The notes: generated from the letters alone by a model not told the origin. A DNA stretch of 64,000 bases from Candidatus Micrarchaeota archaeon (GCA_016188965.1 JACPGT010000013.1:116609-180608); one strand, 5' to 3'; shown: positions 3,196 through 51,067, numbered from the stretch's first letter. Program-made: numbers and translations.

Positions 3196-3245
3196 GCTTG
3201 AAGAAGACCATGGGACAAGACGGCAAAAGCGTACGAAAAGATTTA
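3196..3245. repeat. Copy B: degenerate duplicate of the GT4 3' end
   Basis: tgaagaagaccatgggacaagacggcaaaagcgtacgaaaagat aligns to GT4 1863-1910 at about 75-80 % identity. It abuts the AbiEii stop codon. Confidence 0.55.
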
Positions 3246-4040
3246 TTCGTTTTGAAGCAAGGACAGGACGGACGCGACGACTTCGTCGGCGATCGGCCCG
3301 AATTCCGGGGGACTCTTCATCAAAACGCCCAATTCAGAACGCCATATCTTGGCTTTGGATTGGACGGCAGATGCGAATTCATCGCGAGCGAAACGAACAT
3401 CGTAATACTTCAATTTCTTGTTCACCGAATCCAAATCCGTCCGGACGCCTTTTCGCAGCAAAAACCATGCGTCGTAGACATCGCGCGCCTTGTCCCGTGT
3501 CAATAACGCCCGTATTTTTTCCGACAGAATCTCCGCGGAATCCAAGGCGTAAACGGTGTACGGCCGGATGTCGTCATACGGAGGCACGACCCTTCGCGCC
3601 TGCGCAGGCAAAAGCGGTTTCTCGCGAAGACTCAATTCCAACGTCAGATGCTGCATGCTTTTGGCCTCGCCGTTGAAAAGAGGGCCCGCTAGCTGGACTT
3701 TGAAGGATGCGGAACGCTCATCCGTGAACCTGCGGGATAAGCGCGGCTTGAAATCGTCAACGGTGGCCAACGCGTGTTCAACCCACTCAAGCGGGCTTCT
3801 ATCCGCAGAGACCGTGAAATCCAAATCCTCCGAAAAACGGTCCAGACCCATCGTTTTCTGCAAGCACGTGCCGCCTTTGAACACGAATTCCGTCGTGGTC
3901 TTTGAATAGACGGCCCGCAGCAACTGGTGCTGCAGGTAATCCTTCTCCGCTTGGTACAAGTGGAAGCCCAGCGTCCTTGCTTTTCGCGCCAACTCCTCCC
4001 GCGTAATCATTCCATCGCCTCGTTCACCAGGATGCGCCAC
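3243..4040 (-). CDS. AbiEii/AbiGii-family nucleotidyltransferase toxin (DUF1814)
   Basis: MITREELARKARTLGFHLYQAEKDYLQHQLL...FVFKGGTCLQKTMGLDRFSEDLDF is the hallmark N-terminus of AbiEii nucleotidyltransferases. Alternative start at 4010. It overlaps the upstream AbiEi gene. Confidence 0.8.
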   Translation of the reverse strand: MAHPGERGDGMITREELARKARTLGFHLYQAEKDYLQHQLLRAVYSKTTTEFVFKGGTCLQKTMGLDRFSEDLDFTVSADRSPLEWVEHALATVDDFKPRLSRRFTDERSASFKVQLAGPLFNGEAKSMQHLTLELSLREKPLLPAQARRVVPPYDDIRPYTVYALDSAEILSEKIRALLTRDKARDVYDAWFLLRKGVRTDLDSVNKKLKYYDVRFARDEFASAVQSKAKIWRSELGVLMKSPPEFGPIADEVVASVLSLLQNE

Positions 4041-4720
4041 GCCGCGTTCTTGCTGCCGCGGGAAGGCAAATTCGGATTCAACAAGCCATAGGACGGGGTC
4101 ACGAGCTTCCTCAAACCCGATGCATCCAGACCGGCCCGCTCCATCAGGAAACCCAGGCGCTTGGCCACGATCGGCGAATCGAACCGCTTTGCATACTCCA
4201 CCAATTTGGACGCGTCCAACTGCCCGACTGCGGACGCTGCCTCGGTAATGGGTAAATGCTCCGGTAGGTACAAACCGTCCAGCACCGCCTTTTCAGGCTC
4301 GGCCACCGTTACCGAGCCATACCGCTTGAACCCGAAATAGCGGAAAGCTGAAAGACGGATGAAAACAAAACGCGCGGATCCCACCGTCGCCGTCTTTTTC
4401 GGTTTTGGACAGGCGAGTTGGAGGGTGCGCGGCAATTGGGACGTCAAACCGTGGAATGACAACGCCGACAAGAACGACACGTACCCCACACCAAAGGCTT
4501 CAGCGATTTCGAACGGGGTGCGATCGGCGAGGACGAACTTGCCCCGCTCGACGCGGGCGATGGCTCCTCGTTTGATTGCTCGGGCCAGGAACAATTTGAC
4601 GTACTCCGGCTTTTTGCGCATCACGCGGGCGGCATCTGCAAGGGTGAACGACGTCAAGCCCAGTCCGGATAATTCCTTCATGAATTCGAACAACTTCACG
4701 ATTCCACACCCTACCTCCAC
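4007..4720 (-). CDS. AbiEi-family antitoxin/transcriptional regulator (type IV TA)
   Basis: 237 aa with an N-terminal wHTH-like segment (TSFTLADAARVMRKKPEYVKLFLARAIKRGAI), located immediately upstream of and overlapping AbiEii. Confidence 0.7.
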   Translation of the reverse strand: MEVGCGIVKLFEFMKELSGLGLTSFTLADAARVMRKKPEYVKLFLARAIKRGAIARVERGKFVLADRTPFEIAEAFGVGYVSFLSALSFHGLTSQLPRTLQLACPKPKKTATVGSARFVFIRLSAFRYFGFKRYGSVTVAEPEKAVLDGLYLPEHLPITEAASAVGQLDASKLVEYAKRFDSPIVAKRLGFLMERAGLDASGLRKLVTPSYGLLNPNLPSRGSKNAAWRILVNEAME

Positions 4721-5110: not shown

Positions 5111-6715
5111 TCACTTCGCGAGGTGTTCGCCCATCAAGCGCATTTTTTCCGACGTCAGCGTCCAAGGCGAAACCTTGTTGCCCGGTTCAACCAAGGTATT
5201 TGGAACGTCGGAAAAGTTGAGGTATTTCCATCGCTCGGAAATGCGCGGGTCTTTGAAACGCTTGAGGGATTCTTCGAACGGTTTGGCGCCGCGCGCGGCA
5301 AAGCCATCCAGGCCTACGAACGGCACGTGGTGGCGTTTGAGCACGTCGGCATAATGGTTCAAACCGTCCACGCTTTGCAAAGAATTCGGATAAAACAAGC
5401 CGCCGGCGCCGGAAACGTACGGCTTGACGGTTTGCGCCAGTAGCGAAATCTCGTCGGCTTGCGCGGAAAAAAGCGCCGGGTCGTGCGGCAACAAAGGCGA
5501 GAACACGACCGAGACGTTCGCCTTGCCTCCGAACGCCGCGTGCACCGAGCGGAAAGCCTCGCGCACCGCGCCCAAGGGCTGGACCAAATCCTTATTCTCT
5601 TTCCAATAATACGGGGAACGCGGAGAATTCAAGCCGGGGGCGAATTGCAGCGTGGCGGGCCCGAATTCGGAGACGTCTTTGGCAATGGAATCCAGCGTGG
5701 CGTGGTACTTCGGGACGTTGTACAGGCCTTCCGTCGGCTCCAGCACGAAGTGCGGCCGCACGCCGGCCTGCACCATGGCACGCAAGTCGTCGCGCTCCTC
5801 CGGCGTGAAAAAACCGTTCCCGGGCTGGCGCATCCAGCGTTGTTGCGAGTCCTGGTTAAGGCGGATGAAGACGGAGTTGCCGGAAAAACGCACGCCGCTT
5901 TTGTGGCCCAAATCGGCCAACGCCTCGTGCGGCACGAAATGCACCGGCGTTTTGGGAACCGGCCCGACGACTTCCCGACCCTGCGATTGACGCCAGGACG
6001 CCAACGGGTACGCGCCGATGGCGACGCGTTGCGCGAACGAAGACGCCGCCTTGTCCGAAAAGGGCCCTTCCGAAAGGAAGCGGATCAGACGCATGAAAGG
6101 GTTGGTTCCGGCCAAACCCACGGCAGCGGTGGTGACGCCAGCGGCTCCCACGGCCGCGCCACCGAGGAACTTGCGGCGGGAAATCGGGCGCTCCCAGAAC
6201 GGCAGTTTCTCGACGGCAGGATCAACGACTTGGAAAGTATGGCGGCCAATCTTGAATTCCAGGTCGTGTTGCAGAACGATCCGATCTGATGGCGTCAACA
6301 AACGACTGCGGAACGCTTCGGGCTCCCGCACGTGCACATCGCCTTGACGCCTGAACAAAACATATTGACCCGAAGCCAAACGCTGGATAACGGCATGACG
6401 CAGTTTGACGTCACTGGATTTCGGCAAGTGAAAACGAGGGCCGGGACGGTGGCCCAAAGAAACGGCATCACCGGCCTTGAGCGACAAGGATTCTTCTTGA
6501 AATGCACCCGGACGTGGGCGACCGATTCGACGAATGATAAAATCCATATCAATCCTTTTCGCATAACGGAATAAATATAGCCCGCGCAGGCCCACAAGAA
6601 GACGGGAGACGGTGGACAAAAAATGCAGACCAAAAGAATTCACCTCGAACGTGTGAAATTGGCCATCCAAAGAAGAAAACCCGTATCTATATGCGTGGTG
6701 TGCGGTGCTAACCAA
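5111..6715 (-). CDS. FHA-domain protein with a single TM (twin-Arg-like SRRKFLGGAAVGAAG) and a large extracytoplasmic domain of unknown function; probable true start near 6547
   Basis: FHA-like stretch SSDVKLRHAVIQRLASGQYVLFRRQGDV...RIVLQHDLEFKIGRHTFQV, then a hydrophobic helix, then about 320 aa that could be hydrolase-like (unverified). Confidence 0.5.
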   Translation of the reverse strand: MVSTAHHAYRYGFSSLDGQFHTFEVNSFGLHFLSTVSRLLVGLRGLYLFRYAKRIDMDFIIRRIGRPRPGAFQEESLSLKAGDAVSLGHRPGPRFHLPKSSDVKLRHAVIQRLASGQYVLFRRQGDVHVREPEAFRSRLLTPSDRIVLQHDLEFKIGRHTFQVVDPAVEKLPFWERPISRRKFLGGAAVGAAGVTTAAVGLAGTNPFMRLIRFLSEGPFSDKAASSFAQRVAIGAYPLASWRQSQGREVVGPVPKTPVHFVPHEALADLGHKSGVRFSGNSVFIRLNQDSQQRWMRQPGNGFFTPEERDDLRAMVQAGVRPHFVLEPTEGLYNVPKYHATLDSIAKDVSEFGPATLQFAPGLNSPRSPYYWKENKDLVQPLGAVREAFRSVHAAFGGKANVSVVFSPLLPHDPALFSAQADEISLLAQTVKPYVSGAGGLFYPNSLQSVDGLNHYADVLKRHHVPFVGLDGFAARGAKPFEESLKRFKDPRISERWKYLNFSDVPNTLVEPGNKVSPWTLTSEKMRLMGEHLAK

Positions 6716-9791: not shown

Positions 9792-9893
9792 GCCGTGACA
9801 ACTGGAATGAATCGCGAGCGGACGCTTGGAGTTTAGAAAAAGCCGCTTTTCGAACGCAGCACTCCGAAAAGCGAATTGTCCAAAGGGGCGGTT

Positions 9894-10331
9894 TCAGGCG
9901 AATCGCAGCAGCGACACGGAGAGGGCTTCCTTGCCGCGCTGGGGCGGCAGGCTGGCCAAGGCGTGCGAGTAGATGGCGGGGAAGTTTTCGAAGGCCTGCG
10001 TCAGGCTCGGCAAGCGGGATTGCTTTTCAAGATATGCGCCGACTTTCTTGCGGATGCCGCGGTCGTCGCCCAACGCGATGAGCAAGGTGACGACCAGGGA
10101 GTGCAGGGCGGGCAGCTTGGCGTGTTTGGCGAAGTTGGCGTCGCGGATGGATTGGAAGAACGCCTTGAGGAACGCCTGGGCGTCGCGGTACATGGCGGCT
10201 GTGGCCTTGAAGGGCTTCTTGAGGTACTTGGTCTTGGATAAAAGTTCCATCTGGGCGATTAGGCGCGAGCGGACCAGCGGGTTTTCGGACCAGTGCTTGA
10301 TTTTCTTGGATAAATCGGAACTCAACGACAT
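9894..10331 (-). CDS. Hypothetical all-helical protein, last gene of the His-rich protein operon
   Basis: 145-aa ORF 25 nt downstream of the 927-aa gene, on the same strand. Confidence 0.5.
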   Translation of the reverse strand: MSLSSDLSKKIKHWSENPLVRSRLIAQMELLSKTKYLKKPFKATAAMYRDAQAFLKAFFQSIRDANFAKHAKLPALHSLVVTLLIALGDDRGIRKKVGAYLEKQSRLPSLTQAFENFPAIYSHALASLPPQRGKEALSVSLLRFA

Positions 10332-10356
10332 GTACGGGTTTCACCTCAATTCGACA

Positions 10357-13140
10357 TCAATGTAAGCGGACCGTGCGGCGCTCCATCACGCGGGCGGCAT
10401 GTTCGTACGGCATCGCGGAACCGTATTCATGGATGGGGGCACGTTCTCCGCCGGCGTGGCCGTACACGCCGCTTTCGGCCAAGGCGCGGCTGACGGCGCC
10501 GGGCAGGTGTTCGTAGGGGGCTCCGGACATCGACGGGTGGGCCATCATGCCGGCCAGGCCGTGCAGAGCTTGTTTGTTGGCGGAAAAGTAGGATTCGTAC
10601 GTGCCGTGTTCTTCGTGGCCCAGGGCGTAAGGCGCAGGAAAGTGGCCGCGTTCGACCAAGCGGTCCAACGCACGGCCGACGAGTTTGCGTGCCTTGCGGG
10701 AGCTGCGGATGGCCGGCTGTTCCAAGGACTGTGGCAATTCGGATTGGTATGGCGTGGCCGTTTCCGCTTGGGGGGCCGGCGCTCCGTAGGCGTGGGCGTC
10801 TTGGGGGCCCATGTGTTCGTAGCCTTCTTCGTGTTCGTACGGCTCGCCATGTCCGTAGGGTTCTTCGTGCCCGTAGGGGTGTTCCGCTTCCGGCTCGTGC
10901 GCGCCGTAAGGCGCTTGCTCTTCCGACGGCTTGCCTTGTTCTCGGGGCCCGTATTTTTTCATCCATTCGGCAGCGTAGTGGCCCATCCATTCATGCATGT
11001 GGTCTTGCATCTGGCCCCAGTGGAATTGGGGTGCGAAGTTGAATTGCGGCGCGAACATGTTGTACATCGGAGGCATGGCGGCGTGCGGATATCCTACTCC
11101 GGCAAAAGCGTGGGCGCTGGCGTACGCGTGGGCGTCGTGGAATCCGGGACCGAAGGCCACGGGGGCCGCGTGTCCGAACGCCATGGGGCCGAACATGCCC
11201 GCTCCGGCGGCTGCCACGGGCGCCATGGGCATGCCGTGGCCGGCGTATGCGGAAGCGTGAGCATACGCTCCCGGAAACATCATTGGGCCAAAGCCTGCGT
11301 GGGCGGAAGCGTGGGCGAAAGCGCCTGGGTACATGGCGGGTCCATATCCGGCGTAAGCCGATGCGTGGGCAAAGGCACCGGGAAACATGACCGGCGCGGC
11401 GTGGCCCAAGATCATCGGGTGCGGCACGCCGGGGGCGATGTGCGGGTTGTAGTGGAAAGGCGCGTAGTTGAATTGGCCCATGAAGATGGGTCCGAACTGG
11501 GGGTGGAATCCGGCAATGGGAGCGGGCCGCTCAAACGGGGTAGGCCGGGTCTTGGAACGCCGGGGCGTACGCCGAACCGGTTCTTCCGCGGGCTTCGGAA
11601 TCTCGTAGGACGGCTCGATGACGCCGGGTTCTTCATTCGCCGTGTACGGAGTTTCGTACGGAGTGTCCCCGGTTCCGTAAGGGTCTTCGTAGGGTTCGAC
11701 GATTCCTTCGTGTCCGGGCGGCAGTTGGATTCCGGGAAGCGTCTTGGGATCGGCGCCGGTCAGCAGACCTAAGATGGCGGCCCAACCCGGATGCACGGGG
11801 CTTCCGGCAGCGGCCAAGGCGGCTTGGTTTTTCAATTCACCCAACAAGGGGCCGGCATTGCCCCAGTCGACGTGGGCCGTGACGCTTTTGACAAAGGGGC
11901 TGTATTGCGCCAATGCATGGATTTTTTGGACAAGAAGGCCTTGGTGGGCGGCGATTTGGGCAGGGGAGAGGGAGTCCATGGAGCCGAATTGTGTGTGGGC
12001 GCCTTTAGTCAGAAAGCCGGCGGCCAATTGCGGGTCGATGTTGCCGCGGCTGAGGATGCCTTGCAGGTGGATTTTGTTGCCGACCATGGCCGCGCCGGTC
12101 TGCGTGTCCAGCCGGATGTTGAGGTTTTCGTGGATGGACTGGAATAATTCATTGTGCTGCTGTACGGCGTTGCGTAGCGCATCGATCTGGGCTTGCTGCG
12201 CGCCGTGGCCCAACTGCCCGTCGGCATATCCGGCCAGTCCCATGGCCAATGCGCCGCCGAGGATTTTGTTGAACGAACCGGCGGCGCCCATGTCGGCGTC
12301 TTTTTGCGCTTCCAAGATGTGGAACAGAAAGTCTTTTTCGTTCTGGGCCAGGCCGCTGGGTTCGATGATGTTCTTGGCGAACGCTTCCTCGCGGGCGCGG
12401 TTGCCTTTGAGGGATTGGTAGAAGCTCTTGCCGGAGGCGCTTCCGTTCTGTAGGAGGGTGCCGATGCCGTTGTCAACGGCGTGCGCTTCGGTATGCATGC
12501 GGTTGCGGCTCCAGTGATCGAGGAAAGCCAAGCCGAAGAGGCTGGACAATTCCGCTTTCTCGTGTTGTTCCAGTTTTTCGACTTGTCCGTTCGCGGGGTT
12601 GACCCAGCGGTCCTGGAGCGCATCCGTCAGGATGGCCCGGACGTTGTCGCGGTGCGTGTCATTGTTGACCAACGCGGTAATCTGGCCCAGGTTGATCGCA
12701 CCGCCGCCTAAACCCATGCCGGCGAACAAGGTGCGCACGGTGCTTTGGCCTTCTGAAGAGAGGTTGAGGTTGCCGTACTTGCGGGAAAGGGAGCCGCCGA
12801 GGGCGTGGTCCAGAAGTTCGGCGGAACGTTTGTGGCTGGAGATGGATGAAACGCCTTGGCCGAAGTTGATGAAGCCCTTGGCGCCCACCAAGGCGGCGGG
12901 AAGCGACCAGCCGCCGGAGAGGGCGCCTACCATGCCGAGCGCGCCGGCGTTGGCAAATGCGTTGCGGACGAAGTCGCCCATGTCGGCTTTGGGGCCGCGG
13001 GATTTGGATTTGGAAATCTTGAAGCCTTGGCGGATGTTGTCGTAGAAACGACGCCGGATGTATCCGGGTCCGCCCGGCATGTCGGCGTCATGCCCGCCGA
13101 ACCAAGAGTCCCATATGGCCATAACCAAAGTTACCATCAA
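10357..13140 (-). CDS. His/Ala/Tyr/Pro-rich largely low-complexity protein (927 aa) with tandem 18-aa repeats; unknown function
   Basis: Ordinary N-terminal ~550 aa, then ...FPGAFAHASAYAGYGPAMYPGAFAHASAHAGFGPMMFPGAYAHASAYAGHG... and PYGHEEPYGHGEPYEHEEGYEH. No signal peptide. TTG/ATG start. Confidence 0.6.
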   Translation of the reverse strand: MMVTLVMAIWDSWFGGHDADMPGGPGYIRRRFYDNIRQGFKISKSKSRGPKADMGDFVRNAFANAGALGMVGALSGGWSLPAALVGAKGFINFGQGVSSISSHKRSAELLDHALGGSLSRKYGNLNLSSEGQSTVRTLFAGMGLGGGAINLGQITALVNNDTHRDNVRAILTDALQDRWVNPANGQVEKLEQHEKAELSSLFGLAFLDHWSRNRMHTEAHAVDNGIGTLLQNGSASGKSFYQSLKGNRAREEAFAKNIIEPSGLAQNEKDFLFHILEAQKDADMGAAGSFNKILGGALAMGLAGYADGQLGHGAQQAQIDALRNAVQQHNELFQSIHENLNIRLDTQTGAAMVGNKIHLQGILSRGNIDPQLAAGFLTKGAHTQFGSMDSLSPAQIAAHQGLLVQKIHALAQYSPFVKSVTAHVDWGNAGPLLGELKNQAALAAAGSPVHPGWAAILGLLTGADPKTLPGIQLPPGHEGIVEPYEDPYGTGDTPYETPYTANEEPGVIEPSYEIPKPAEEPVRRTPRRSKTRPTPFERPAPIAGFHPQFGPIFMGQFNYAPFHYNPHIAPGVPHPMILGHAAPVMFPGAFAHASAYAGYGPAMYPGAFAHASAHAGFGPMMFPGAYAHASAYAGHGMPMAPVAAAGAGMFGPMAFGHAAPVAFGPGFHDAHAYASAHAFAGVGYPHAAMPPMYNMFAPQFNFAPQFHWGQMQDHMHEWMGHYAAEWMKKYGPREQGKPSEEQAPYGAHEPEAEHPYGHEEPYGHGEPYEHEEGYEHMGPQDAHAYGAPAPQAETATPYQSELPQSLEQPAIRSSRKARKLVGRALDRLVERGHFPAPYALGHEEHGTYESYFSANKQALHGLAGMMAHPSMSGAPYEHLPGAVSRALAESGVYGHAGGERAPIHEYGSAMPYEHAARVMERRTVRLH
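11240..11401. repeat. Three tandem imperfect 54-nt repeats inside the 927-aa gene, encoding the AFAHASAYAG(Y/F/H)GP(A/M)M(Y/F)PG units
   Basis: ccggcgtatgcggaagcgtgagcatacgctcccggaaacat / cctgcgtgggcggaagcgtgggcgaaagcgcctgggtacat / ccggcgtaagccgatgcgtgggcaaaggcaccgggaaacat. Confidence 0.8.
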
Positions 13141-13203
13141 GGAGGTTTAAAAATGCTCGCGTTTATGCGGGGGCATTCGCGTGGAAAAATCAAGCGGTTG
13201 CGC

Positions 13204-14937
13204 TCAACGGTACATGCGACGCGCCAGGCTGATGAGCCGGGTGTGGACTTCGTGGTGGCTGGCGCCGGGGATGGCGGCGCTGGTGGGGCGGATGGAGTGG
13301 ATGGCGTTGCGATACTCGTTGCCGAAGCCGTCGCCGCCTTCCATGATGTGGTCGCGTACGGCATTGATGCGGCCGCCGTGTACGGCGTCGTAGGCGTTTT
13401 TCAGTCCGCCCTCTTGGAACCGGACGTGCTTCTCGAGGGCGAGTTGGTTGAATTCGGATGCGACGTAGTTGGCGCGCCGCGGGTCGGTTCCGGCGTGGTG
13501 CAGGACGCCGCGCAACAGGGCCGCATGCAGGTGTTCGGCGACGTCGGCGGGCATGGCCGGATGCGCCAACGTGCGCACCACGTCCAGCAGGTTGGCCTTG
13601 CGCCGGGACAGCGCTTCTTCGAACGTTCCGCTTAATTGCTTGTCGGAAAAACCGAAGGGGTTCAAACCGGGCAGTCGGCCTTCTTGTTTGAGCGCGTCCA
13701 ATTCGCGGCCCAATGTGGCGCGGGCCTCTTTTGACGTGAAGATGTCCTTGTGCAGGAGCACCTGCATCAGTTCGGTCGCGTGTGGAGTCCGGGGTTCGGC
13801 TACCGGCGGTGTGCGGAACGGGTCGGAAGGACGGAATGCGTCCTCATGCGTGGAACCGTATGGATGCTCGGAGGGAGCCTGGCCGGGCATGAATCCATGC
13901 AGGCCCATCTGTTGCCAGTGTTCCGGCGGCACGTGCGCCAAGTGGGGGGCAAACCACGCGTATTGCGGAGCCCAGCCCGGATGAGCGGCGCCGAGAAGCG
14001 GACCGGCGTGGCCGCCTGGAAAAACGGGTGCGCCGTGGCCCGCCGGCATCACGGGGGCGTAGGGAAACGAGTGGTACGGGCCGTGGCCGAACATGGCCGG
14101 CTCGAAGGTGGGTCCGACGTGCGGCGCTTGAGGCGAAAAATGCGAGGGATGCATGCCGGGAAACAGGTACGGTCCGGCTTCGGGGCCCAGCCACGACGGG
14201 TGGGGCACGCCGTACGGCATGGACGGGTCGAAATGCGGAGGGAAACCGTAGGGCCCATAGGGCATGGCGCCGTATGGCGATCCGCCGGGAAAACCGGGCG
14301 GTCGTCCCGTTTGCGGACCCGTCCGCTCGCCGGGTCGTTGCGAACCAGGAGTGTTCGCACCGCGTTGCGTTCCGGGCGGCCTATCCGGTTGGCGCGAAGC
14401 GTCATGCGCCTCGGAGGCGGCGTGGTTGATGAGGTTGAGGAATTGGTGGAAGGGGTTGTTGGGGTTGTACCCGTTGAGTTCGCCGTAGGCCGCTTGGCTT
14501 TGAAGATGGGTGAAGAAGGAATCCAGGTTTCCGTGCCAGTCCAGAGGCTGGCCGCGTTTGTCGCTAAGTACGCCGGCTAAGCGGGCTTTGAGGGTGGCGT
14601 GTTGGGGGTCGTTGACGAGTTGTTCGACGGCGCGGGCAAGCAGGGCGTGGTTGTCGCCGAATTTTCCGACCATGGGAAAATCGGGGTCGTAGTCTTTGTG
14701 GCCGGGAAGGAGTTTCGAGGCGGGAACGTCGTTGACCGTTGCGAAGGATTTGCCGGACGGAAGCTTGTCTAGCCGGATGCGGTGCCGGACTTGGAAGAAT
14801 GAAGCGGGCAACAGTTCAGAGTGCAGGACGGCGGGTGCTTCCTGCATTTTTGGCAAAGGGCGAGCGTGGGTCGGTCCGCCTTCGTCGAGTTCTTCCTCGC
14901 CTTCCTCCGCATGAGCATGGTCTGACATGGGTGACAT
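13204..14937 (-). CDS. His/Pro/Gly/Tyr/Phe-rich low-complexity protein (577 aa), probable paralog of the 927-aa protein
   Basis: ...PYGPYGFPPHFDPSMPYGVPHPSWLGPEAGPYLFPGMHPSHFSPQAPHVGP...PPEHWQQMGLHGF. It shares GVPHP and HW.QM motifs and a similar C-terminal tail with the 927-aa protein. Confidence 0.6.
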   Translation of the reverse strand: MSPMSDHAHAEEGEEELDEGGPTHARPLPKMQEAPAVLHSELLPASFFQVRHRIRLDKLPSGKSFATVNDVPASKLLPGHKDYDPDFPMVGKFGDNHALLARAVEQLVNDPQHATLKARLAGVLSDKRGQPLDWHGNLDSFFTHLQSQAAYGELNGYNPNNPFHQFLNLINHAASEAHDASRQPDRPPGTQRGANTPGSQRPGERTGPQTGRPPGFPGGSPYGAMPYGPYGFPPHFDPSMPYGVPHPSWLGPEAGPYLFPGMHPSHFSPQAPHVGPTFEPAMFGHGPYHSFPYAPVMPAGHGAPVFPGGHAGPLLGAAHPGWAPQYAWFAPHLAHVPPEHWQQMGLHGFMPGQAPSEHPYGSTHEDAFRPSDPFRTPPVAEPRTPHATELMQVLLHKDIFTSKEARATLGRELDALKQEGRLPGLNPFGFSDKQLSGTFEEALSRRKANLLDVVRTLAHPAMPADVAEHLHAALLRGVLHHAGTDPRRANYVASEFNQLALEKHVRFQEGGLKNAYDAVHGGRINAVRDHIMEGGDGFGNEYRNAIHSIRPTSAAIPGASHHEVHTRLISLARRMYR

Positions 14938-14950
14938 TGGGTTTGGGCGG

Positions 14951-14960
14951 AAATAAAAAA
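14951..14960 (-). promoter_or_regulatory. TATA-like box (reverse strand TTTTTTATTT) upstream of the His-rich operon
   Basis: About 28 nt upstream of the second in-frame ATG (14928), consistent with a leaderless transcript. Confidence 0.45.
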
Positions 14961-15138
14961 GAGGCGGCTTTGGGCGTTTCTTGATTTCCGGGAGGAAACG
15001 GCTGCGACCGGCATCTCGGCGGGAAGTGTTGCCGGAAAGGGAGAGCGGAGAATAAAAAGAAGGCAGTGCGGTTCCGGCGGAAAATGAAAAAAAAAAAGAG
15101 AAAAAAGTTTGGAAGAAAAGGATGTGCGTCTTTTTGAA

Positions 15139-15723
15139 TCAGGAAGTCGGCGTGGATGGGCCGCATTTCGCCGAGTAGAGGCTGTAGTCGGCGAGGGAAA
15201 TGTCGTCCTTGAGGGATTCGGGGATGGAGGCGACGAAGTACAGCGAGTAATCGCCGCAGGGCACGAGGCCTTGCACCATGTGGAGGGTTTCGCCGAATTC
15301 GTCAGGCGCGATGCGGTACTGCAAGCGGAGGATGCGGCGTCCGTCGACGGTCTGGACGGTTTCGGAATCAGGCGGGACGGCCAATTCGTCAAACGCGATG
15401 TCCTTGAGTTCTTCCAGCGTATACGTGCCGTTCACGACTTGGAAGACGAACGTCTCGGATAGGCCGGAGGGGCCGGGGGCGAAAAAAAGGGCGGTTTTGC
15501 CGTCTTCGACTTCCAACGGGTAGCCGACGGGGTAGCGGATGGAGTAGCCGCGCACGGCGTCGGTGAAAGCCAAGCTGTGCGACTCGTACTCGTCTGAATA
15601 AGAGACGGTCGTGGAAGCCGGTGAAAGCAACTCGGATGACCACGGGCCCAAGTCGGTGAAGAAGTAAGCGAACAAAACGGCGGCGGCGAACACCAGGGGT
15701 AGTGCGAGCGAGCGCAGGTTCAT
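15139..15723 (-). CDS. Small secreted or membrane-anchored protein, co-transcribed with the 3349-aa gene (4-nt overlap)
   Basis: Signal/anchor MNLRSLALPLVFAAAVLFAYFF. Confidence 0.55.
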   Translation of the reverse strand: MNLRSLALPLVFAAAVLFAYFFTDLGPWSSELLSPASTTVSYSDEYESHSLAFTDAVRGYSIRYPVGYPLEVEDGKTALFFAPGPSGLSETFVFQVVNGTYTLEELKDIAFDELAVPPDSETVQTVDGRRILRLQYRIAPDEFGETLHMVQGLVPCGDYSLYFVASIPESLKDDISLADYSLYSAKCGPSTPTS

Positions 15724-18700
15724 GGTTTGGATCCTCCGGTCTGGCCTTTGGACAGCAGGCGGGTCAAGGCCTGGTCCGCGGCGGACAGTTTGGCGGCGCC
15801 TTCGGCGTCTTTTCCTGCCCGGAATGCGGCAATGGCCTGGTTGGCAAGGGCGATGATGGAGCGGCGGTCGGCATCGGACAGGGAATTCTTGAAACCGTCG
15901 GTGTTGACCTGGTCGATGAGGGCCTGCGCCGCTTGGATCTGCACTTGGCGGGCGGTGACTTTCGGATTCTCGGCCGCGGGCTGGTATTCCTTGAACCCGA
16001 CGGCGGGCAACGGCGCATAGTCGATGGACGAGCCGGGCGGAAGTTTCAACAGCTGGAGGTCAGCGGGCAGCAGGGGGGCTTCCTCCGGCAGGAAGATGGA
16101 GCCGATGAAGCGAGGGTCGACCAGCGCGTCGTCGTTGAATCCGACGACGAGGCCGTACGCTTGGGATTGGCCGTCGGGCCACTGCAACAAGCGGAAGCAG
16201 GTGCCCGAATTGCCGCAGAGCTTCGAGACGCTGATGACGTTGCCGGACTCGCATAAGCCGGACGCGCCCTTGATGCAGATGCTTTCGGCCGACGGCTTTC
16301 CTTTTTCGGTGTGGACGGCGATGACGTGACTGCCGCTGGAGTCGGCCGACACTTGGATCTGCACGGGCCGAAAATCGGTGTTGAACAGGAAGGCCGAAAG
16401 AAATGCCGCGAATGCGCTGGCGCCGCGGGCGAGGCGGGCGCGTCCGTCGGCGTTCAGTAGCTTGCGGGCCGCGGCTTGCTGGTCGGCCAGCGTTGCTTCC
16501 GCATCCGCCAACAACGACGGCGTCAACTTGGCGGGTTTTCCGTCGCGGTCGTACAGCTGCAAGTCGGCCAGCGCTTTGGCTTTCTGGGCAGGAGTCTTGG
16601 CGCCTTTAAGGAATCCGGTGGAGTCAAGACGGTTGGCACCGACCTCGGTAACCGACGCCACGCCTCCGAATGACGCGCCGATTTCGACGCCTTGGCGTCG
16701 GAACGCGTCGGAAAGATCGGTGAAGCTCAGCGCACCGTCTTCGAATCGTTTGACAATCGCCGCGCCGGTTTCGCCTGCGGCATTCGGGAATTTTCCGGTT
16801 TTGACGATGTCGTTGATGGCCGGCGCCAAACCAGTGCCCACGTCGGCAGATTGGATGAGTTGCAGGTAGCGGCTTTCCTTCTTCAATTGATCCAATAGGA
16901 CCTTGTTCTGCGCCGCGGTGCGTTTGCCTAAAGCGGTAACCACGTCAGCATCCGGAGCCGTATCCGGCAGGCTCAATTTTGTGCGCAAGAGTACGCCTGC
17001 TTCTTTTTCCAACGGCTCGAGGGCTTCGCCCATGAGGTTGGTCCGCATCGCGTTGCTGGAATGGATTAGAAACTTGGCGCCGCTGCCTTTTTCACTCGTG
17101 ACAATCAGGAATTTGGATTTCTCACCCGTAAGCTGTTCCAGCAGATACTCCTGGTTGGCCGCGGTCTGGAAGTAGTTCAGTCGGTCCAATTCAGCCATGC
17201 ATCCGGCGGGATTGCCACTGCAGCGGGTGAGCACACCCGCTGGAATCTTGTTCGTGGACCCTTTCAGTACTTCAAAAGTCTGGGGGCCGAATTCCGGCGA
17301 CTGCATCAGGGCCGAAAAAGTGGAGCGAAGGCGCGCCGTCAACGCATCGCCTTGCAAGCTGGCGGGGCCGGCGAGGCCCAGGTTTTCGACGAAGAACTGG
17401 CGGGCGGCAACGGGGTTTTCCTTGATTAGGTTGGTGGAAACCATGGCGTAACCTTGCTTGACTTTCGCCGGGTCCTTGCTGCCGATGAGGGCCGCGGCTG
17501 CCTTCTTGTCATCCGGCGACAGAAGCGCCATGCCGTGGAACAACGCATTGCTGAACGCATTTTCAGGTTTTCCGTTTCCGGCGTCATAGAACGCGCGGAC
17601 GGCTTGTTCCGTGGTGCGGCGGCCTTGCGCGCCGAAGAAGCCTTGGGCGGCAAAGGAGCTGGTCGCGGCTTGTATGTTCTTGCGATACGACTCGCCGGGC
17701 ATGAGGTTGATCATGTAGGAGCGGGCCGCGACTCCGCCGCTGTAGACTTTGTTGGGGGATAAGCCTTGACGCAGGACTAAAGTGATGGGAACAACTGGCG
17801 GCGTGGCGGTGACGTCGGGGCCGGCCAGATTCTCCAGGTACGCGACCGTCGCGCCGCCGACGATGCTCTGCAGGGCGAACGAGCCGACGGCGGAGCGCAT
17901 GGCGGTTCCTGTCAGGGTCGAACCGAGGGTCGTCGTGGACGTGGCGCGGAGCAACTGGGCTTCGGCGGCCAGGGGCTTCCAACCGCCGAAGAACGGATTG
18001 GCCATTTCGACCATGCCGGCTAATACCGACGAAGTGCAGGCTTCCAGGGCGCGGCAGGACAAGACGCTTCGGCCTTGGAAATATTCGGCCACGGCGCCGG
18101 CGCCGCAGCCGGATGCGGCGGTGATGAGGCGGTAGTTGGTGATGAAGGAGCGGACTCCGACGAGAAAGGAGGATCCGCCGGTGGCCGTGACGGAGGCGGG
18201 GTTGGCCGCTGCGATGGCTTGGAGGAGCGCCAGGCCCGTGACGGTGAGGCCCAACTTCGTCAGGACGGGTCCTCCGGTGCGCCAGCAGAAGTTCGCGTTC
18301 TCGTACGGAATGGCAGGACAGGGCTTGTCTTCGAATCCGGGTTTGTTGCAGTACTTGATTTTCGCGTCTTTGGCGTTGGCGCCGAACGCGGAGGCGTACG
18401 TCATCTTGACGGCGAGGGCGTCCTTGTCGTTGGCGTCCGAGCCGTACGTACCTAGCACGCCTTGGCGGAGGCGGCCCACGCTTTCCAGCATGGCGGCGAC
18501 TTTGCCTTTGTCGCCGGAGTTGACGGCGGATTGCGCCAAGCCGCCGACGGCGTTGAGCGTGTTCCAGGAAAAGACTTGCTTGACGGCGCCGATGACGCTG
18601 CCGGTGCCCAACTGGTTGCCGGCGTACGACACGGGCGTGTCGGCCGTCAGAAGCGCCGCGTTGGCCAAGTTGACGGGGCATTCCTGGAGTTTTTCGACGT

Positions 18701-21700
18701 TCAGCTCGACTTGCATGTGGCCCATCCATTCGGACACTGAACTTCCTTGGATGCCGCAGGCGGGGTCAAGGCGGGCGGTGAGCCGGTAGATGCCGCAGCC
18801 GTTGAACAGGATGCGGCCGGAGCCGGAGGATTGGACGACGACTTGGTTGATTTCGGGGAAGAACTGCGTCTTGATTTGTGATTCCCACTGCAGGGACTGC
18901 GCTAAGGTGTCATCGCCGGACAAGGCGCCTTCCGTCAATTGCAGGACCGTGGATTTCTGGAATTGCTTTCCGCTGTCGAGGGACTGGCAGAACGCCGAAA
19001 GGCCGGAAAGTTCGGTGGCTTGGCCGTTGTTGTTGATGCGTTGGTTGACCAGTTCGCGGAACGTGCTGGCGAACGAATAGACGGCGCGTTCGGCCTGGCC
19101 GCTGGTGCAGAAGAATTTCTTGCAAGTGCGGAAGTCCAGAAGGTTCTGGTACGCCTGCGTGCGGGCTTGCGCTTCGGTCTTGCGTTCCGCTTCCTTCTGT
19201 GCTGCGGACTTTTCCGGTTCCGGCGGATTCGCCGCGGCGGCTTCGGCCGCGGAAGGCGTCAGAGCCGGCGGCGCGTTGGCGGACGGCGCGTCGGCAAAGG
19301 CAAGCGTTTCGTAGGACGCGAGGCCCATCTGGCCTTTCTGCTTGGGCGTCGCCGTGCGGGGGTCGAAGAAAGGCACGGCTTTTCCGATGGGCGAGTACGG
19401 ATAGAGCGAAGAGGAGGGTCCGGGATTCCAGACGTGGACGTTGATCGTCTTGGTGGGGTTGAACGAATCGCCCAGAAAGTCGATGATGTAAGGGCCTTGT
19501 TTTCCTTGGCTTCCGGGGTTGGACACGCAGGAAAGCAGCATCACGTCGGCCGGCTTGATTTCCGCCCCGGTCTGCAGCTGGAAGGTCGTCTTGGACCCGC
19601 CTTCCACGCGCGTGCACGTCATGAGTCCGGCGCCTGCGCCCGAGATGGACTTGACGCGGACGGGCTTTTCCTCGTTGTTGACGATGGCGAAGAACAATTC
19701 GTGCCCGGCGCTCTTGAAGTACAGCTTGTCCGCGCCGGTGCCGCCGGCGATGCCGGCCAGTTCCGCCGTGTCGTAGTTGACCGATACGGCGTTCAAGTCG
19801 ACGAACTGCTTTTGATCCTGGTAGGCCTGGCAGTCCGACTCCTTGGCGTCGAAAATCATCTTGACGGGCAGGCGGTGTTTTTCGGATTCGGAAACGGGCT
19901 CGCCGTTGACGTCGTTGAACTTGAACGCGTACCGGCCTTCCATGGACGGCGGCACTTTGCTTGCCGAAATGCATTTGTCTTTCCAAAGCACGTCCGGCGG
20001 TAGGCTGAATTCAAGGGTGAAGGCGCGGCAGTTGGACTGGCCTTCCACGGACGGCTCGACCGCGAGGCGTTGGCGCTTGCCGTAGGCGCTGGGTTCCGAG
20101 AAGTAGGCGCGTTCGGAAGGCACCTTGGAATCCGTCGAATCGGCTCCGGCGATGGCTTGGAAGATGGGCTTGTGTTCAGCGGACACGGCTTGGGCCGGCT
20201 CGGACGTGACGGCGTCCAGGATGATGCTCTGTTTGCCGCTGTTGAACAGGCAGATTTCCTTCTTCTGGGTGAACAATTCCGGATTCTTGTTGCTGAACGT
20301 GATTTCCAGCACGCCCATCTTGCCGTCCTTGTCCAAAGCGGCAAAAACGTCTTCCGCCGTGATGGACACGTCGAGGCGGCCGGATCCTTTCTCGCATACG
20401 GGCAGGAAGGAAAGCGACGAGCCCTTGGGCATCAGAAGGCCGGAACCGGAGTACTGGGGCGGCATGGCGGCCTGGATCTTCTGGCCGTTTGGATGAAGCG
20501 TGATTTTCTTGGCGCTGCCCAACTGCGTCAACGAGCCGGATTTCGAGCCGAACGAGATCGGCGTCAGGACGCCCAGGTCCACGTCGGCCTGGTTTTCCTT
20601 GAAACTGGCCAGGACGCGCTGGGGCATGGATACCACCGATTTTTCGGCGAAGGACACCTTGGCTTCCTTCAGCGTGTCGGCGACGTCCTTTCCGGCAGCG
20701 TCCTTGAGGCACGCCGTCAGCTCGACGGCATCCGACGTGCGGATGCTTTTTTCCTCGGCGTCCGACGCGTCGCCTACGGTGAACTCGCTGTCGGTCGAAA
20801 AAACAATTTTCTTGACGGCCGGGCTATGGAACACTTCGGCCGTCCCCGAGCCGCCGCTGACGGAGAATACGAGGCGGGCCGAATCGTCGCAGGCCGGCAG
20901 GATGGCTTCGTACCCTTTCGCCGTCTTCTGTACCGCCGTTCCGGTCGGCAGGGTGAAAGCCACGGAGTCCGGAGGCGCGTACGTGAAGGAACACTTGGCC
21001 ACTGAAGCCGGGTCGTAGGGAATGCGGGCGTGGGCGCCTTTGAGGTAAGTCAAGGCGTTGTCGCGGGCTACGCGCAGCACGTTCTGGCTTAGTTGTTTGG
21101 ACACGCTAAGCGTCCAGGATGCCTCGACCACGGCGTCGTCGGAAAGCTTCAGCGCGTTGCGTCCGTCCTGCGTCTTGAATGCCTTGGGCGAAGGGCCATG
21201 CACGCTCAAGGCGTAGGACAGGGGCATGCGCAGTTCGAACGCCTCCTCGATGGGCAAATCCTTGACGGCACTGACGCGCGCACGGGAGACGAACAAGGAC
21301 GTGCCGGACGGCAGCATGAGCGTGCCTTTCTGAACGTCTAAAGCGGCGCCGTCGCCGAAAGCTAGGCGTTCGCCTCCGGGCAACTGGATGGCCTTGAGGT
21401 TCTGCAAGTGGGCATCGGACTGCGGTTTGGAAAGGTAAGACAACGAATTGGCGGCGTTGGGCGTCTTGGGCTGCACATTCTTGCGTTCGACCGTGCCGGG
21501 CAACAAGTCGAACTGCGCGTCGGTAGGAAGCTTGATCTCGACGGAGTCCGGCGGCAGCAGGTTCTGCAACGCATCGTAGTTGAAGGGAATACGGCGGAAC
21601 GTGACCGGCTGCAAAGGCGGCACGCGCACGCCGGCGGCGGAGAGCCGGGCGTTGCCCTGCGCCTGCGGCGTTTGCACGCCGGGCGGCAGGATGATCTGCG

Positions 21701-24700
21701 CGTTGTCCAGCGTGACGAGCATCTGTCCGGACGCGCCGAAGGGCTGGTAGTCGGCATCGGACGGCAGGTTGAGCGTCACGCCCAACGGGAACGAAATGGT
21801 CCAGCCGCCTTCCGGCAAGGCCTGCACGTAGCGGCGGTCCAGGACGAACGCCGTGCCTTGCGGCACCTGGGCGTCGATGGGTGTGACGGACGCGCCGGTG
21901 CCGAACCACAGCAATTCACGCGTAGGCAACAAGACCGACGTGCTGCCGTCCGGGTTGGACTTGCTGCGGGCGTTGGCCAGAAATTCCATGCGTACGTCCA
22001 CGGGCAACGTGAGGCGGTAGCCGTTGGGAGGCTGGCAGGCCAAGCTGGCGGTGGAGACGTCGAGGTTGACCGAAGCCGTCTTCTTCGAGGACAGGCCCTG
22101 GAACGAACCGTATACGGTCAGAGCGCCTTTTTTCTGCAGGTCTTCGCTGAAGCAGTCGATTTCACGCGGCAGGAAGGCCTTAATGGTGAACGCGTCCTGC
22201 GAGCCGGGCGGCAGAGTGAGCGACGCCGGCTGGATGGAAAGGCCCAGGGTCTGCTCGACGTTGAACACCATCGGGTACGCGCCCGTATTGGACACCGTCA
22301 TCTGGACGGACTGCGTCTTGTCCTTCGGCGGCTCCAGGTTGAACTGCAGCGCGTCCGGCGAGACGGACCACGACTCGTCGATGGCCGTCTGCGAAAACAC
22401 CGCGTCAACGGTGAACGGCACGTCGAACGACTCGGAGTAGCCTTTGCCGGACACGCGGACGTGCACCGTGCCCCGCACTTTTTCCTTCAATTGGCCCGCT
22501 TTCTTGGCGATTTCCAGGACGGATTCCTTGATGGCGGCCTTCAGGTCGAACGACGCCGTGCCGCTTGCGGCCAAGGACAGCGACGTCGTCGAAAGCGTCA
22601 CGTCGGTAATCTGGCCGCCGGCGTCCAGCGAAACGCTGATGGAGGCACGCAGCTTGTCGGCAAGCCGGTTGGACAATTGGACGGACGCCGAAGCGGGCTC
22701 CTTGGAATCCACGCTGATGACCAACGCTGGAGGCGTGATGTCAACGGCCTGCTCCGGCGGTTGCACGGCAATCGAGCCGGAAAACGGCCGGTAGCCGTCC
22801 TTCGTCACTTCGAACGAAATAGGCGCAAGCGAGTCAGGCTCAATCTCGTCCACGACGTAGACGCCGGACGCGTTGCCCGATTCGACGGCCTCCCGATCAT
22901 CGACGCTCACGCGGGCCCCCGTCACGGACTGGCCCAGCGTGTCCTTGACGGTGAACACCAATTTCGACACGCTCAAGGCCTCGACGCGGTCCGGACGCAC
23001 CGATACGACCAGCCCGGGCGTGCCCGGAGAAAAGACGCTCACGAAGGCCTCCGTCTCGAAGAGAACCGATCGGCCGTCCGAGACGTTGATCGACAACGGC
23101 GCGTCGGCTGACAGGCGGACGGCTTGGAACGAGAACTCGGCCGAACTGCGACCAGCGTCGGCCCGGATGCGGGCCGCCGAAGGCGTCAGGGATGCGACGC
23201 TGGAATTGCTGCGGCCGGAAAGAAGCACGATGGCCGGCGTGCCGGACGACACGCCAAGGACGCCGTCGGATGAGAGGCCGAAGACGTTGACGACCAACGA
23301 CGCCTTCTGTCCCCACGGCAGGTCGAGGCGCGAGCTCTTGCGTCCCTTGTACGAAAAATGCCACTGCACGCACACGTTTTCGGTGCACGTGCCGGAAAAC
23401 GAGACGGACAGGCGGGCGGATTCGGTCAGGCCTTCCGCCGGCGAACGCAGCGTCTCGACGGGAGTGAAGAAAGCCGAACGGTGGGAAAGCACGACGGTGC
23501 CGCTGGAAGGCGTCTTGAAACGCAAGCTAAACTGGCGCGAGCCGTTGAACGGCCCGTACTCGAACAGCACGCCGGTCGCTTCCTGGACTTCGACGGCCGC
23601 CGGCGCAAGCACCGTCACGAAGCCGGACAACTCGGGGTTGCGCATCGACTTGAACGAAAAGCCGCCCACTTTGTTGAACACGACCGAACGATTCTGGCCG
23701 TCGGGAATCGTGACGCTCTGACCGTCGTCGAAAACGATGAAATGCGTCACGTTGTCCTGGTTGACGAACCAGACGGACCCGCCTTGCGTCACTTCGAAAG
23801 AGGGCTGGGAAAAGCCATCCGGACCGATGTCGACGGGCGGCACGTCGGGCAACGCTCGGTTCTCCGCCGAGCCTTTCTTGGAAACCCGCGCGCCGACGCC
23901 TTGGCCACCCAGCACGGCCGCGCCTTCGAGGGCCACTTCACCTTCGGCTTTCGAGAACGAAACGCCGGGCGACACGATGGCGTAACGCGCCTCGTACTCG
24001 CTCAACGGCGAGAGGGAATGGACCTTGCGGCCGGAAACGTCGAAAACGCCGTCGAAACGCAGCCTCACGTTCTGCGCCACCTGGCTGGACGTCAGTTCGA
24101 ACGTCAACGGCGGCATGCCGGCATACACGGGCAGAGGGGAGGCATCCATCGACGAGTAGCCGTCCGCGCTGACGTGAAACTGCGCGTCCTCGCTTTCAAG
24201 GACGGCGATGGAACAGGCGCCTTTGGAATCCGTCTTGCACGACGCGTTGGACCACGAGACTTTGGCATTGGCAAGGCCGTTGCGCGAAAAATGGTCCACG
24301 ACGGACACTTTGACGCCCACCGACACGGGCGGGAACTGCAAGTCGACCTGCGTCTCGTTGGAGTCTGCATCGAGCGCGACGGAGCCGCTGGAAACCGAAC
24401 GCACGCCGTCGGATGCCACCACTTGGATGACGCGGAGCGGCACGTCGTCGAACACCTGCACGCCGTCCTCGCCCGTCAGCCGCACCGGCAAGCCCAACGG
24501 CTTGGACTTTTCGTCCAGAAGAAAGACGGACACGCGCGACGCGTCAGTGCCTCGGCGGTCCGTCACGTGCACGCGGACGCGGGTCGATTGGTTGTCGGAA
24601 TCTTCCAGCACGACCAACTGGTCCTTCTGGATGGACGGCACGTACTTCGGCAGGAAGCCGGCCTTGTAGACGGAGACGGCCAACGACGACGAATGCGACA

Positions 24701-36020: not shown

Positions 36021-36048
36021 AGGTCCACCAGAGAATAGTTTCGCACTC

Positions 36049-36058
36049 TTATATAAAC
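36049..36058 (-). promoter_or_regulatory. Canonical archaeal TATA box (TTTATATAAG on the reverse strand), ~27 nt upstream of the TSS and ~6 nt leader to ATG 36020
   Basis: seen in sequence. Confidence 0.6.
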
Positions 36059-36231
36059 GTAAACAATTGCCCGCGAGGGAAAAAGGACGCGGGTTTAAGA
36101 AAAAAACAGGAGAAAGAAGCCCGGGTAAATGAAGCAAAAACGCGGGCCGCCGGCCCATCCGCGTCGCGTCACCGGCCAGCACCCGGGCAAACGCTGAAAA
36201 ACCAAGGACCGAATCAGAAGTCCGAACCGTC

Positions 36232-36660
36232 ATGAACTGGTACCAGCATTTCGCCGTCTCGCTTGCGGCCTGCCATCTGCTCAACGTGGCATCCGCGACG
36301 CCGTGGACCGGGCCGTTATTGGCCGCCGCCGCGCTGGGCGCGTGGCTTCCCGACGTAGACCATCAGAAAACCCGCATCTTCCACTTCGCACTCGCCGTCG
36401 TCTTCGCACTCGCTTTTTCATTCGTTTTCCTGACGGTCAACTTCCCGTTTTCCGCGAAGGTCTTCGCCGCCACGGCCGCAGGCTTTGCATCGGCGCTTTT
36501 ATTGTGGCTCATCAAGCCGCGTCACCGCGGCGTCACGCACCATGGGCTTGCCGCCGCCGTCTTCGGAATGCTGGTCTACGTCGTGAGCCAGAACGCGTCC
36601 GTGGCGGTCAACGGTTTCCTGGCGTACGGCATGCATTTGGTTGCGGACTGGGTTTCGTGA
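36232..36660 (+). CDS. YdjM-like membrane-bound metal-dependent hydrolase (DUF457/COG1988)
   Basis: Four predicted TM helices and the conserved WLPDVDH motif. It is the only plus-strand gene embedded in the giant-gene block. Confidence 0.55.
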   Translation: MNWYQHFAVSLAACHLLNVASATPWTGPLLAAAALGAWLPDVDHQKTRIFHFALAVVFALAFSFVFLTVNFPFSAKVFAATAAGFASALLLWLIKPRHRGVTHHGLAAAVFGMLVYVVSQNASVAVNGFLAYGMHLVADWVS

Positions 36661-50953: not shown

Positions 50954-51067
50954 GCCCTGGTAGCTCAGCCGGTAGAGCGGCTGACTGTTAGCTTTTTTGG
51001 CGGCGGTTTTTCAAAGCCAAGAACGCCAGACATCAGCAGGTCGTTGGTTCGAGTCCGACCCAGGGCG
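50954..51067 (+). tRNA. tRNA-Asn (anticodon GTT) with a ~41-nt intron at the canonical 37/38 position; no encoded CCA
   Basis: Acceptor GCCCTGG/CCAGGGC+G; D-arm GCTC-AGCCGGTA-GAGC; anticodon arm GCTGA-CTGTTA|intron 50991-51031|A-TCAGC; T-arm GTTGG-TTCGAGT-CCGAC. Mature length 73 nt. A T-rich tract follows. Confidence 0.8.

Follow-up and report, generated by a model that had tools for sequence, protein, structure and literature searches.

The DNA considered here is a 64,000-nucleotide stretch of a Candidatus Micrarchaeota archaeon (GCA_016188965.1, JACPGT010000013.1:116609-180608), called the window below and numbered from its first letter. On its minus strand lie three adjacent genes, p577, p927 and p145, which are real genes under selection and form a cassette that stands in conserved order beside the genes of a giant surface protein and of the small membrane-anchored protein p194. 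The two large proteins, p577 and p927, are each modular, with a helical N-domain, a low-complexity linker of ~200-330 residues and a helical C-domain, and on sequence comparison their family is an orphan, far from anything described. The module-level mosaicism of the cassette between strains is a new observation. Our best reading, held tentatively and well short of even, is that p577 and p927 act as a pair of scaffolds or tethers inside the cell, close to the membrane, in conjunction with the giant surface protein and with p145 as a partner. The three genes of the cassette and its two neighbours are:

9894-10331, minus strand: p145, a small, probably helical protein; its start lies 25 nucleotides (nt) beyond the p927 stop and is preceded by a GAGGTG Shine-Dalgarno-like site
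10357-13122, minus strand: p927 gene, 921 residues from the ATG at 13122
13204-14937, minus strand: p577 gene, 577 residues (reading frame, orthologs, codon analysis)
15139-15723, minus strand: p194, a small membrane-anchored protein with a transmembrane (TM) segment at residues 5-23 and two conserved Cys; orthologs are 56-71% identical
15720-25769, minus strand: giant 3349-residue surface protein with a TM anchor at residues 31-49 (Kyte-Doolittle (KD) hydropathy 3.05) followed by CarboxypepD_reg beta-sandwich domains (Pfam E=5.5e-26)

A first-pass annotation had placed three minus-strand open reading frames (ORFs) here, p145 at 9894-10331, p927 at 10357-13140 and p577 at 13204-14937, and all three are confirmed as genes. 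In a codon alignment of the p927 N-domain with that of the related locus L004, taken in the minus frame, substitutions at codon positions 1/2/3 number 38/26/132. The ratio of nonsynonymous to synonymous substitution rates (dN/dS) against orthologs is 0.05-0.4 across every segment of the cassette: 0.09 in the p927 N-domain, 0.14-0.16 within the clade in the p927 linker, 0.29 in the p577 linker, 0.05-0.11 in the p577 C-domain and 0.14-0.18 in p145. The GC content of third codon positions (GC3) in the three ORFs is 0.74-0.85, the same as in the recognisable genes of the window, and full-length orthologs in conserved order come from several metagenomes. The plus strand does have long ORFs across this region, e.g. 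10399-11772 (457 residues), but the proposal that these are the true genes and the minus-strand ORFs artefacts of GC-rich sequence is contradicted by each of these observations, and we reject it as having next to no probability on the strength of the third-position-dominated substitutions, the dN/dS values and the syntenic orthologs. Better-coding plus-strand ORFs had been named in advance as the counter-case, and the substitution pattern favours the minus strand. The mechanical ORF of p927 reaches a TTG at 13140 (927 residues); however, the sequence MA[IF]WDSWFGG forms the N-terminus both of the 99%-identical homolog P0001 and of all p927 orthologs of the sister clade (defined below), and translation therefore probably starts at the ATG at 13122.

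The composition of the large proteins is His/Pro/Tyr/Ala-rich as first described, with 7.5% His, 12% Pro and 10% Gly in p577 and 6% His, 14% Ala and 12% Gly in p927, as against 0.3-5.0% His in the other window proteins (n=22). Cys is absent from p577, p927 and p145 and makes up 1-3% of the anchored proteins. No TM segment or signal-like hydrophobic N-terminus was found by KD hydropathy in p577, p927 or p145; the maximum 19-residue mean is below 1.0 in p577 and 1.44 in p927, hence under 1.5 in both, as compared to 2.07-3.05 in the anchored neighbours, and the earlier statement that the large proteins lack signal peptides is upheld. The modules of the two proteins, with structures predicted by AlphaFold2 (AF2) where a predicted local distance difference test score (pLDDT) is given, are:

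14815-14937, minus strand: p577 acidic/His N-terminal tail, residues 1-41, MS..H..HAEEGEEE (alignments; pLDDT <50)
14395-14814, minus strand: p577 N-domain, residues 42-181, two short beta-hairpins and four helices (pLDDT 64-87)
13786-14394, minus strand: p577 low-complexity linker, residues 182-384 (composition; pLDDT <50)
13207-13785, minus strand: p577 C-domain, residues 385-577, all-helical (alignments; pLDDT 75-92)
11746-13122, minus strand: p927 N-domain, ~460 residues, all-helical by prediction (alignments; dN/dS as above)
10753-11745, minus strand: p927 low-complexity linker, ~330 residues (composition; dN/dS as above)
11221-11382, minus strand: three tandem 18-residue repeats, PGAFAHASAYAGYGPAMY / PGAFAHASAHAGFGPMMF / PGAYAHASAYAGHGMPMA, in the p927 linker, with period-2 Ala alternation
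10360-10752, minus strand: p927 C-tail (alignment; C-domain profile hmmsearch E=7.6e-11)

The C-domain of p577 is its most conserved part and is a module common to the p927-family proteins, with the invariant motifs HLHAA..RG.LHH, RF..GGL and IRP.S.A.P..SH. The p927 C-tail of the window retains just the first half of this shared domain (profile positions 2-109) and has lost the HLH motif, whereas sister-clade p927 orthologs carry a full C-domain that is 42% identical to that of p577. A composition-adjusted BLASTP alignment of p577 with p927 (E=1e-22) covers the low-complexity region and the C-terminal region, and the GVPHP and HW.QM motifs previously reported as shared both lie inside it. Comparison by hhalign of five domain and protein profiles of the cluster, on the other hand, shows no hidden homology between the two N-domains, p145 and p194; the paralogy that had been proposed for the whole proteins is thus limited to linker and C-domain, the N-domains being unrelated. 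The description of both proteins as largely disordered is likewise accurate in part: ~35-45% of each is low-complexity and the remainder consists of conserved helical domains. At the extreme N-terminus of p577, MS(G)..H(G).HAEE with its acidic run is conserved in both clades next to a hypervariable N-domain, and this tail may be a targeting or binding tag. The p927 N-domain contains conserved Gly/Ala-rich, moderately hydrophobic segments, NAGALG.VG.LSGGWS.PA.LVGAKGF and FNKILGGA.A.GLA, whose KD peaks of 1.0-1.44 make a peripheral membrane association possible.

The linkers are of two compositional types, which divide the relatives into clade A (the window, L004 and L007) and a sister clade (L001, L006, P0005 and P0009). 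Linker His is 7-8% in clade A vs 0.5-2% in the sister clade, Tyr 4-7% vs 0-1.7%, and Lys plus Arg 2-5% vs 12-17%; clade-A linkers are charge-poor, with 5-6% Phe and 3-5% Met, and those of the sister clade are Arg/Lys/Glu/Ser-rich in both paralogs, with 10-13% Asp plus Glu. The composition thus changes together in both paralogs between the clades. In the window the p577 linker has 22% Pro, 15% Gly, 8% His and 13% aromatic residues, and the p927 linker 16% Ala, 15% Pro, 12% Gly, 8% His, 7% Tyr, 6% Phe and 5% Met, with EPY/PYG motifs at both ends and 73 F/Y/W/H in 331 residues, a mean spacing of 4.3. The tripeptide PYG occurs 4-6 times per clade-A protein vs 0.2-0.5 expected, a 10-30-fold enrichment (5 vs 0.17 in the p577 linker); it occurs four times in the remote relative P0010 and 0-1 times in the sister clade. 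The concerted switch and the PYG enrichment suggest that the two linkers cooperate or bind a common partner. The period-2 Ala pattern A.A.A occurs 14 times in the window p927 linker as compared to 1.4 +/- 1.2 in composition shuffles (maximum 7 in 2000), and L004 has the 18-residue repeats as well, whereas L007 has them in reduced form and the sister clade lacks them. Because the sister-clade linkers are so poor in His and Tyr, the conserved function cannot depend on His/Tyr chemistry, which is, as far as these compositions indicate, a clade-specific flavour of a variable linker, although one under purifying selection within the clade. Of the points that speak against metal sequestration as a conserved role, this is the principal one.

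Detectable relatives of these proteins are few and confined to a small number of Micrarchaeota. A word-indexed search of 5.8e9 proteins gave five relatives of p927 and three of p577, and the C-domain profile returned P0006 alone. An exhaustive profile search with the p927 N-domain over 1.84 billion representatives found five clusters, P0001, P0003, P0009, P0010 and P0011, of which three are family members and two are remote (P0010 at 5e-24, P0011 at 6e-11). Two loci were found among metagenome contigs of the Joint Genome Institute (JGI), one already known and the other, L094, an addition; tblastn against phage and plasmid collections found no cassette relatives. Pfam, NCBIfam, PHROGs and PADLOC scans of p577, p927, p145, p194 and the domain alignments yielded no matches or chance-level ones such as Imm32 (E=0.05, in two of eight C-domains), and no DinB-family match in Pfam for the cassette domains. 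Sequence-profile searches of the PDB with the p927 N-domain and the shared C-domain found no relatives, matches to HrpA (E=0.02 over 45 residues) and CLASP (E=1.1) being judged chance, and Foldseek gave no significant fold match in PDB or BFVD. Calponin-homology (CH)/Hook domains and DinB-like metal-binding four-helix bundles were among the known folds considered for comparison. The lack of a recognised family, remarked on at first sight, is therefore borne out by all of these family and structure collections and by the exhaustive profile search; in the literature no description of these proteins was found.

The gene order giant - p194 - p577 - p927 - p145 is found in L004/L005, L007/L008 and L094, and the same order with an extra 181-residue gene (p181) between p577 and p927 is found in L001/L002/L003 and L006; L092 holds the p927 - p145 part. 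With its order kept in at least four other lineages, the cluster is, as the first-pass annotation had supposed, a conserved unit adjoining surface-protein genes. p145 is always the last gene of the cassette, with 80-89% identity within the clade and 40-42% to the sister clade, and orthologs of the giant (3301-3328 residues) stand upstream of the cassette in L001, L004 and L006. The remote N-domain relative P0010 is encoded ~6 kb from another giant that is followed by a p194-like gene (E=1.8e-9); in L089 a remote p194 relative of 216 residues, with the same E value, follows the 2944-residue giant. The identification of p181 by eye as an FHA domain was withdrawn, as it is unsupported by Pfam, BLASTP and a PDB search.

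Within this constant order the modules have separate histories. Between L004 and L007 the DNA identity is 87-96% in p194, 50-54% in the p577 N-domain, 98-100% in the p577 linker and 52-74% in p927, and L094 is a third recombinant that combines L004 and L007 types. The giant and p194 of the window have their nearest relatives in L001/L006 (~71% amino acid identity) but its p927 and p145 in L004 (89-90%), and a jump in identity of the window to L004 lies near 13200-13300. Such patterns indicate that the cassette is exchanged module by module between co-occurring strains. The p577 N-domain shows only 38-49% amino acid identity among all lineages, including L004 vs L007, where the flanks are 94-100% identical. 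The divergent alleles of this domain (~50% DNA and 38% amino acid identity) lie at L004:10001-10550, L007:705-1250 and L094:8160-8700. Allele comparison suggests balancing or diversifying selection, or else frequent cassette exchange.

The transcription signals of the cluster, as predicted from its sequence, are:

15081-15106, minus strand: T-rich run just 3' of the p194 stop, resembling an archaeal terminator (sequence; Tandem Repeats Finder row)
14951-14960, minus strand: TATA-like box TTTTTTATTT, 14-23 nt upstream of the p577 ATG
13146-13154, minus strand: TATA-like box ATTTTTAAA, 24-32 nt upstream of the p927 ATG at 13122
9835-9873, minus strand: hairpin CGCTTTTCG...CGAAAAGCG and T-run downstream of p145 (sequence, ORF layout)

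Equivalent A/T boxes precede p577 in L001, L004, L006 and L007, the box before p927 is conserved in the same four loci, and a T-run after the stop of the previous gene precedes each box. The GAGGTG site of p145 lies 6-9 nt upstream of its start. Since two conserved TATA-like boxes are present and p145 has a ribosome-binding site, there are probably two transcription units, p577 alone and p927 with p145; the TATA box that had been assigned to a single operon is thus found before p577, but with a second box before p927 a single unit is unlikely. The hairpin and T-run after p145 likely mark the end of transcription, and the genes past them are convergent on the plus strand. The p194-p577 spacer (14938-15138) is 201 nt in the window vs 41-46 nt in L001, L004, L006 and L007. 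This spacer contains a long T-rich tract and coincides with the switch of the closest relative of the window; it may be a recombination scar.

The start of p194 and the stop of the giant gene have 4 nt in common, which suggests translational coupling of the two. Three giant TM-anchored CarboxypepD_reg proteins fill 15.7-42.2 kb of the window, which also encodes an archaeal S-layer protein. The giants at 15720-25769, 29943-36284 and 36792-42206 have in common a cytoplasmic N-terminal motif, E[KAD](R)G[IM]P, before the TM anchor, in the forms EKGIPPAALL, EARGIPSLPVF and EDRGMPSMPFF; it may serve all three as a module for targeting or docking.

The genes that follow the cassette differ among the loci. 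In L001, L006 and L092 YheCD-like ATP-grasp genes lie directly downstream of p145 in the same orientation, one sister-clade ATP-grasp gene being fused to an FHA domain (23.9 bits vs a cutoff of 20.7), and up to four YheCD/TTL-like ATP-grasp genes come after sister-clade cassettes (L001:13089-20560, L006:13155-20614, L092:3430-5004). L004 and L007 have HPr-kinase-C-like P-loop genes after p145, again in the same orientation, with an extra APH-like kinase in L004 only; a true FHA/YscD-like protein is encoded near P0010; and a Transglut_core gene lies ~10 kb downstream in L001 and L006 only, the window having no gene for a cross-linking enzyme. These neighbours suggest that the cassette may be regulated by protein modification and that the enzymes may act on the linker proteins. 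A 534-residue protein of the window with one weak TM segment (5111-6715, minus strand) is matched ~8 kb beyond the L001 cassette (20770-22464), on its downstream side, by an ortholog of 51% identity and shares a ~100-residue region with the sister-clade 181-residue gene; on account of this ortholog and common region it is a recurrent cassette neighbour, its FHA-likeness being unsupported. In the window the cassette is not accompanied by genes for Ni/Zn enzyme maturation or for oxidative cross-linking, and Pfam scans of the neighbours there and in related loci turned up no urease, hydrogenase, Ni/Zn enzyme maturation or metal-transport families.

The host is a groundwater Candidatus Micrarchaeota archaeon (DPANN): the CTP synthase of the window shares 90% identity with its counterpart in a 'Candidatus Micrarchaeota' groundwater metagenome-assembled genome (MAG) and 78% with that of a second. 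The ORF of this enzyme has 819 residues (55431-57890, plus strand), with the synthase and GATase domains ending at about residue 572 and a C-terminal extension of ~245 residues that has no Pfam match. An intron-bearing tRNA of 114 nt (50954-51067, plus strand; Rfam 57.7 bits, missed by ARAGORN) fits an archaeal genome. An AbiEii toxin/AbiEi antitoxin pair, i.e. a type IV toxin-antitoxin system, occupies 3243-4720 on the minus strand beside an AAA_14/DUF4143 ATPase (1950-3086), and GC content is 42.5% in 63001-64000 vs 52-66% elsewhere in the window.

How the parts might work together can be set out only conditionally. In the tentative scaffold reading, p577, p927 and p145 would be a lineage-restricted cytoplasmic cassette accompanying the giant surface protein and p194. 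An intracellular location is suggested by the absence of a TM segment or signal-like N-terminus from all three proteins, unlike p194 and the giants, and by their being Cys-free; p927 would be held at the membrane by its Gly/Ala-rich amphipathic helices, and p577 and p927 would associate through the shared C-domain. As multivalent and cohesive tethers, or as platforms for binding, the linkers would then organise or regulate the giant complex, plausibly at host-cell contact, p145 would be a co-translated partner or chaperone of p927, and the neighbouring kinase-like, FHA and ATP-grasp genes of the related loci would point to control by post-translational modification. This arrangement resembles ZipA, TonB and PopZ-type envelope scaffolds in its structured or membrane-associated N-terminal part, long Pro-rich linker, helical C-terminal domain and linkage to envelope genes; however, no sequence or fold similarity to these was found and there is no true TM helix, and the cassette linkers are aromatic/His-rich rather than Pro/Gln- or Glu/Lys-Pro-rich. 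In composition only, the charge-poor clade-A linkers, with F/Y/W/H every ~4.3 residues, Gly/Pro/Ala/Ser spacers and PYG repeats, are reminiscent of FG-nucleoporins and prion-like domains, and like sticker-spacer domains they are conserved within the clade despite low complexity (the p577 linker having pLDDT <50), although the cassette is archaeal, there is no homology, and the sister clade uses charged linkers. Several findings weigh against a scaffold. The deeply divergent p577 N-domain alleles are swapped among near-identical strains, and such swapping is more typical of proteins that face an external partner (host or virus) than of housekeeping scaffolds; the GTDB species-representative genomes, including the closest Micrarchaeota, hold no relative of the cassette, which therefore does not belong to the core of the envelope; AF2 gives the p927 N-domain as helices only, in a model that is unreliable at pLDDT 43; and the modification enzymes are absent from the window copy, where GT2-like and 275-residue genes converge instead. 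A more far-reaching version, which we consider quite unlikely, would make the cassette a hitherto undescribed DPANN-specific intracellular apparatus in which the co-evolving linkers form a cohesive, possibly pH-, metal- or phosphorylation-switchable sub-membrane meshwork at the site of giant-host contact, with the p577 N-domain as a strain-specific recognition module that possibly enters the host via a cytoplasmic bridge.

That same variability could instead mean that the cassette is directed against a host or competitor, p577 and/or p927 being effectors that lack a classical signal peptide and pass to the other cell where the giant makes contact with it, with p145 as chaperone or immunity-like protein and the variable modules under diversifying or balancing selection. 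DPANN archaea are episymbionts, and the mosaic L004/L007 identities, the L094 recombinant and the differing nearest relatives of the window genes (L001/L006 for giant and p194 but L004 for p927 and p145) favour such a role; p145 supplies a small, presumably co-transcribed downstream gene, and the p927 N-domain might enter membranes by way of its Gly/Ala-rich helices. Module-level recombination, the small downstream gene and an adjoining cell-surface apparatus are all shared with polymorphic toxin/immunity cassettes. Yet toxin, immunity, secretion and trafficking domains are lacking in the Pfam, NCBIfam and PADLOC scans, and the nearby genes include no export machinery. In p577 it is the N-domain that varies and the C-domain that is most conserved, the reverse of polymorphic-toxin logic, and the p927 C-tail (60% identical between window and L004) and p145 (89%) do not co-vary. 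An effector role is on balance unlikely. The metal-binding or cross-linked material that the first-pass annotation had favoured finds no support, the His/Tyr richness being confined to one clade and no supporting genes accompanying the cassette in the window; both forms of that idea are weakened by the unconserved linker composition, the missing secretion signal and the absence of supporting genes nearby. As metal binding or buffering, the His/Glu/Tyr-rich linkers, e.g. HEPEAEHPYGHEEPYGHGEPYEHEEGYEH, would chelate Zn, Ni or Cu, or metal or pH (through His protonation) would switch their cohesion. Their 7-8% His does exceed the 0.3-5% of other window proteins, the acidic-His tract is conserved in L004, and the elevated His, Gly, Ala and Tyr and the AHASAYAG and GHG motifs recall Hpn, the HypB/UreE tails, Nereis Nvjp-1 and squid beak HBPs. 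However, Hpn has ~47% and Nvjp-1 ~27% His, far more than these linkers, whose His is unconserved, falling to 0.5-2% in both sister-clade proteins, and which have neither a secretion signal nor a metal-enzyme context (no urease, hydrogenase or metal-transport gene among the scanned neighbours); the motif retained in L007 is EPYG rather than His, and Pfam gave no DinB-family match. We regard a metal role as quite improbable. A structural material that is secreted to the cell surface and there assembles itself or is cross-linked, as a matrix, cement or fibre by analogy with His/Tyr-rich hardened biomaterials, silk or functional amyloid, would fit the composition, the adjoining surface-protein genes, the transglutaminase-core and YheCD-type ATP-grasp genes near sister-clade copies, and the significant Ala alternation of the 18-residue repeats, suggestive of beta-strands. 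But hydropathy reveals neither a signal peptide nor a TM segment, strong purifying selection acts on the folded N- and C-domains, there are just three repeats and these are not conserved in L007, the sister-clade linkers are highly charged and non-aromatic, and no Tyr cross-linking oxidase was found nearby, so that this proposal is very unlikely.

DPANN archaea rely on physically touching their host cells, and to our knowledge hardly any of the proteins responsible have been described. Being under selection, mosaic between strains and in tight linkage with a giant surface-protein gene, the cassette is thus a concrete candidate component of the contact machinery. Even if the function should prove mundane, a tempting but unsupported annotation as a "metal-sequestering biomaterial" is removed, and the cassette provides an unusual prokaryotic case of long low-complexity linkers that are kept under purifying selection and whose composition has switched in concert in two paralogs.

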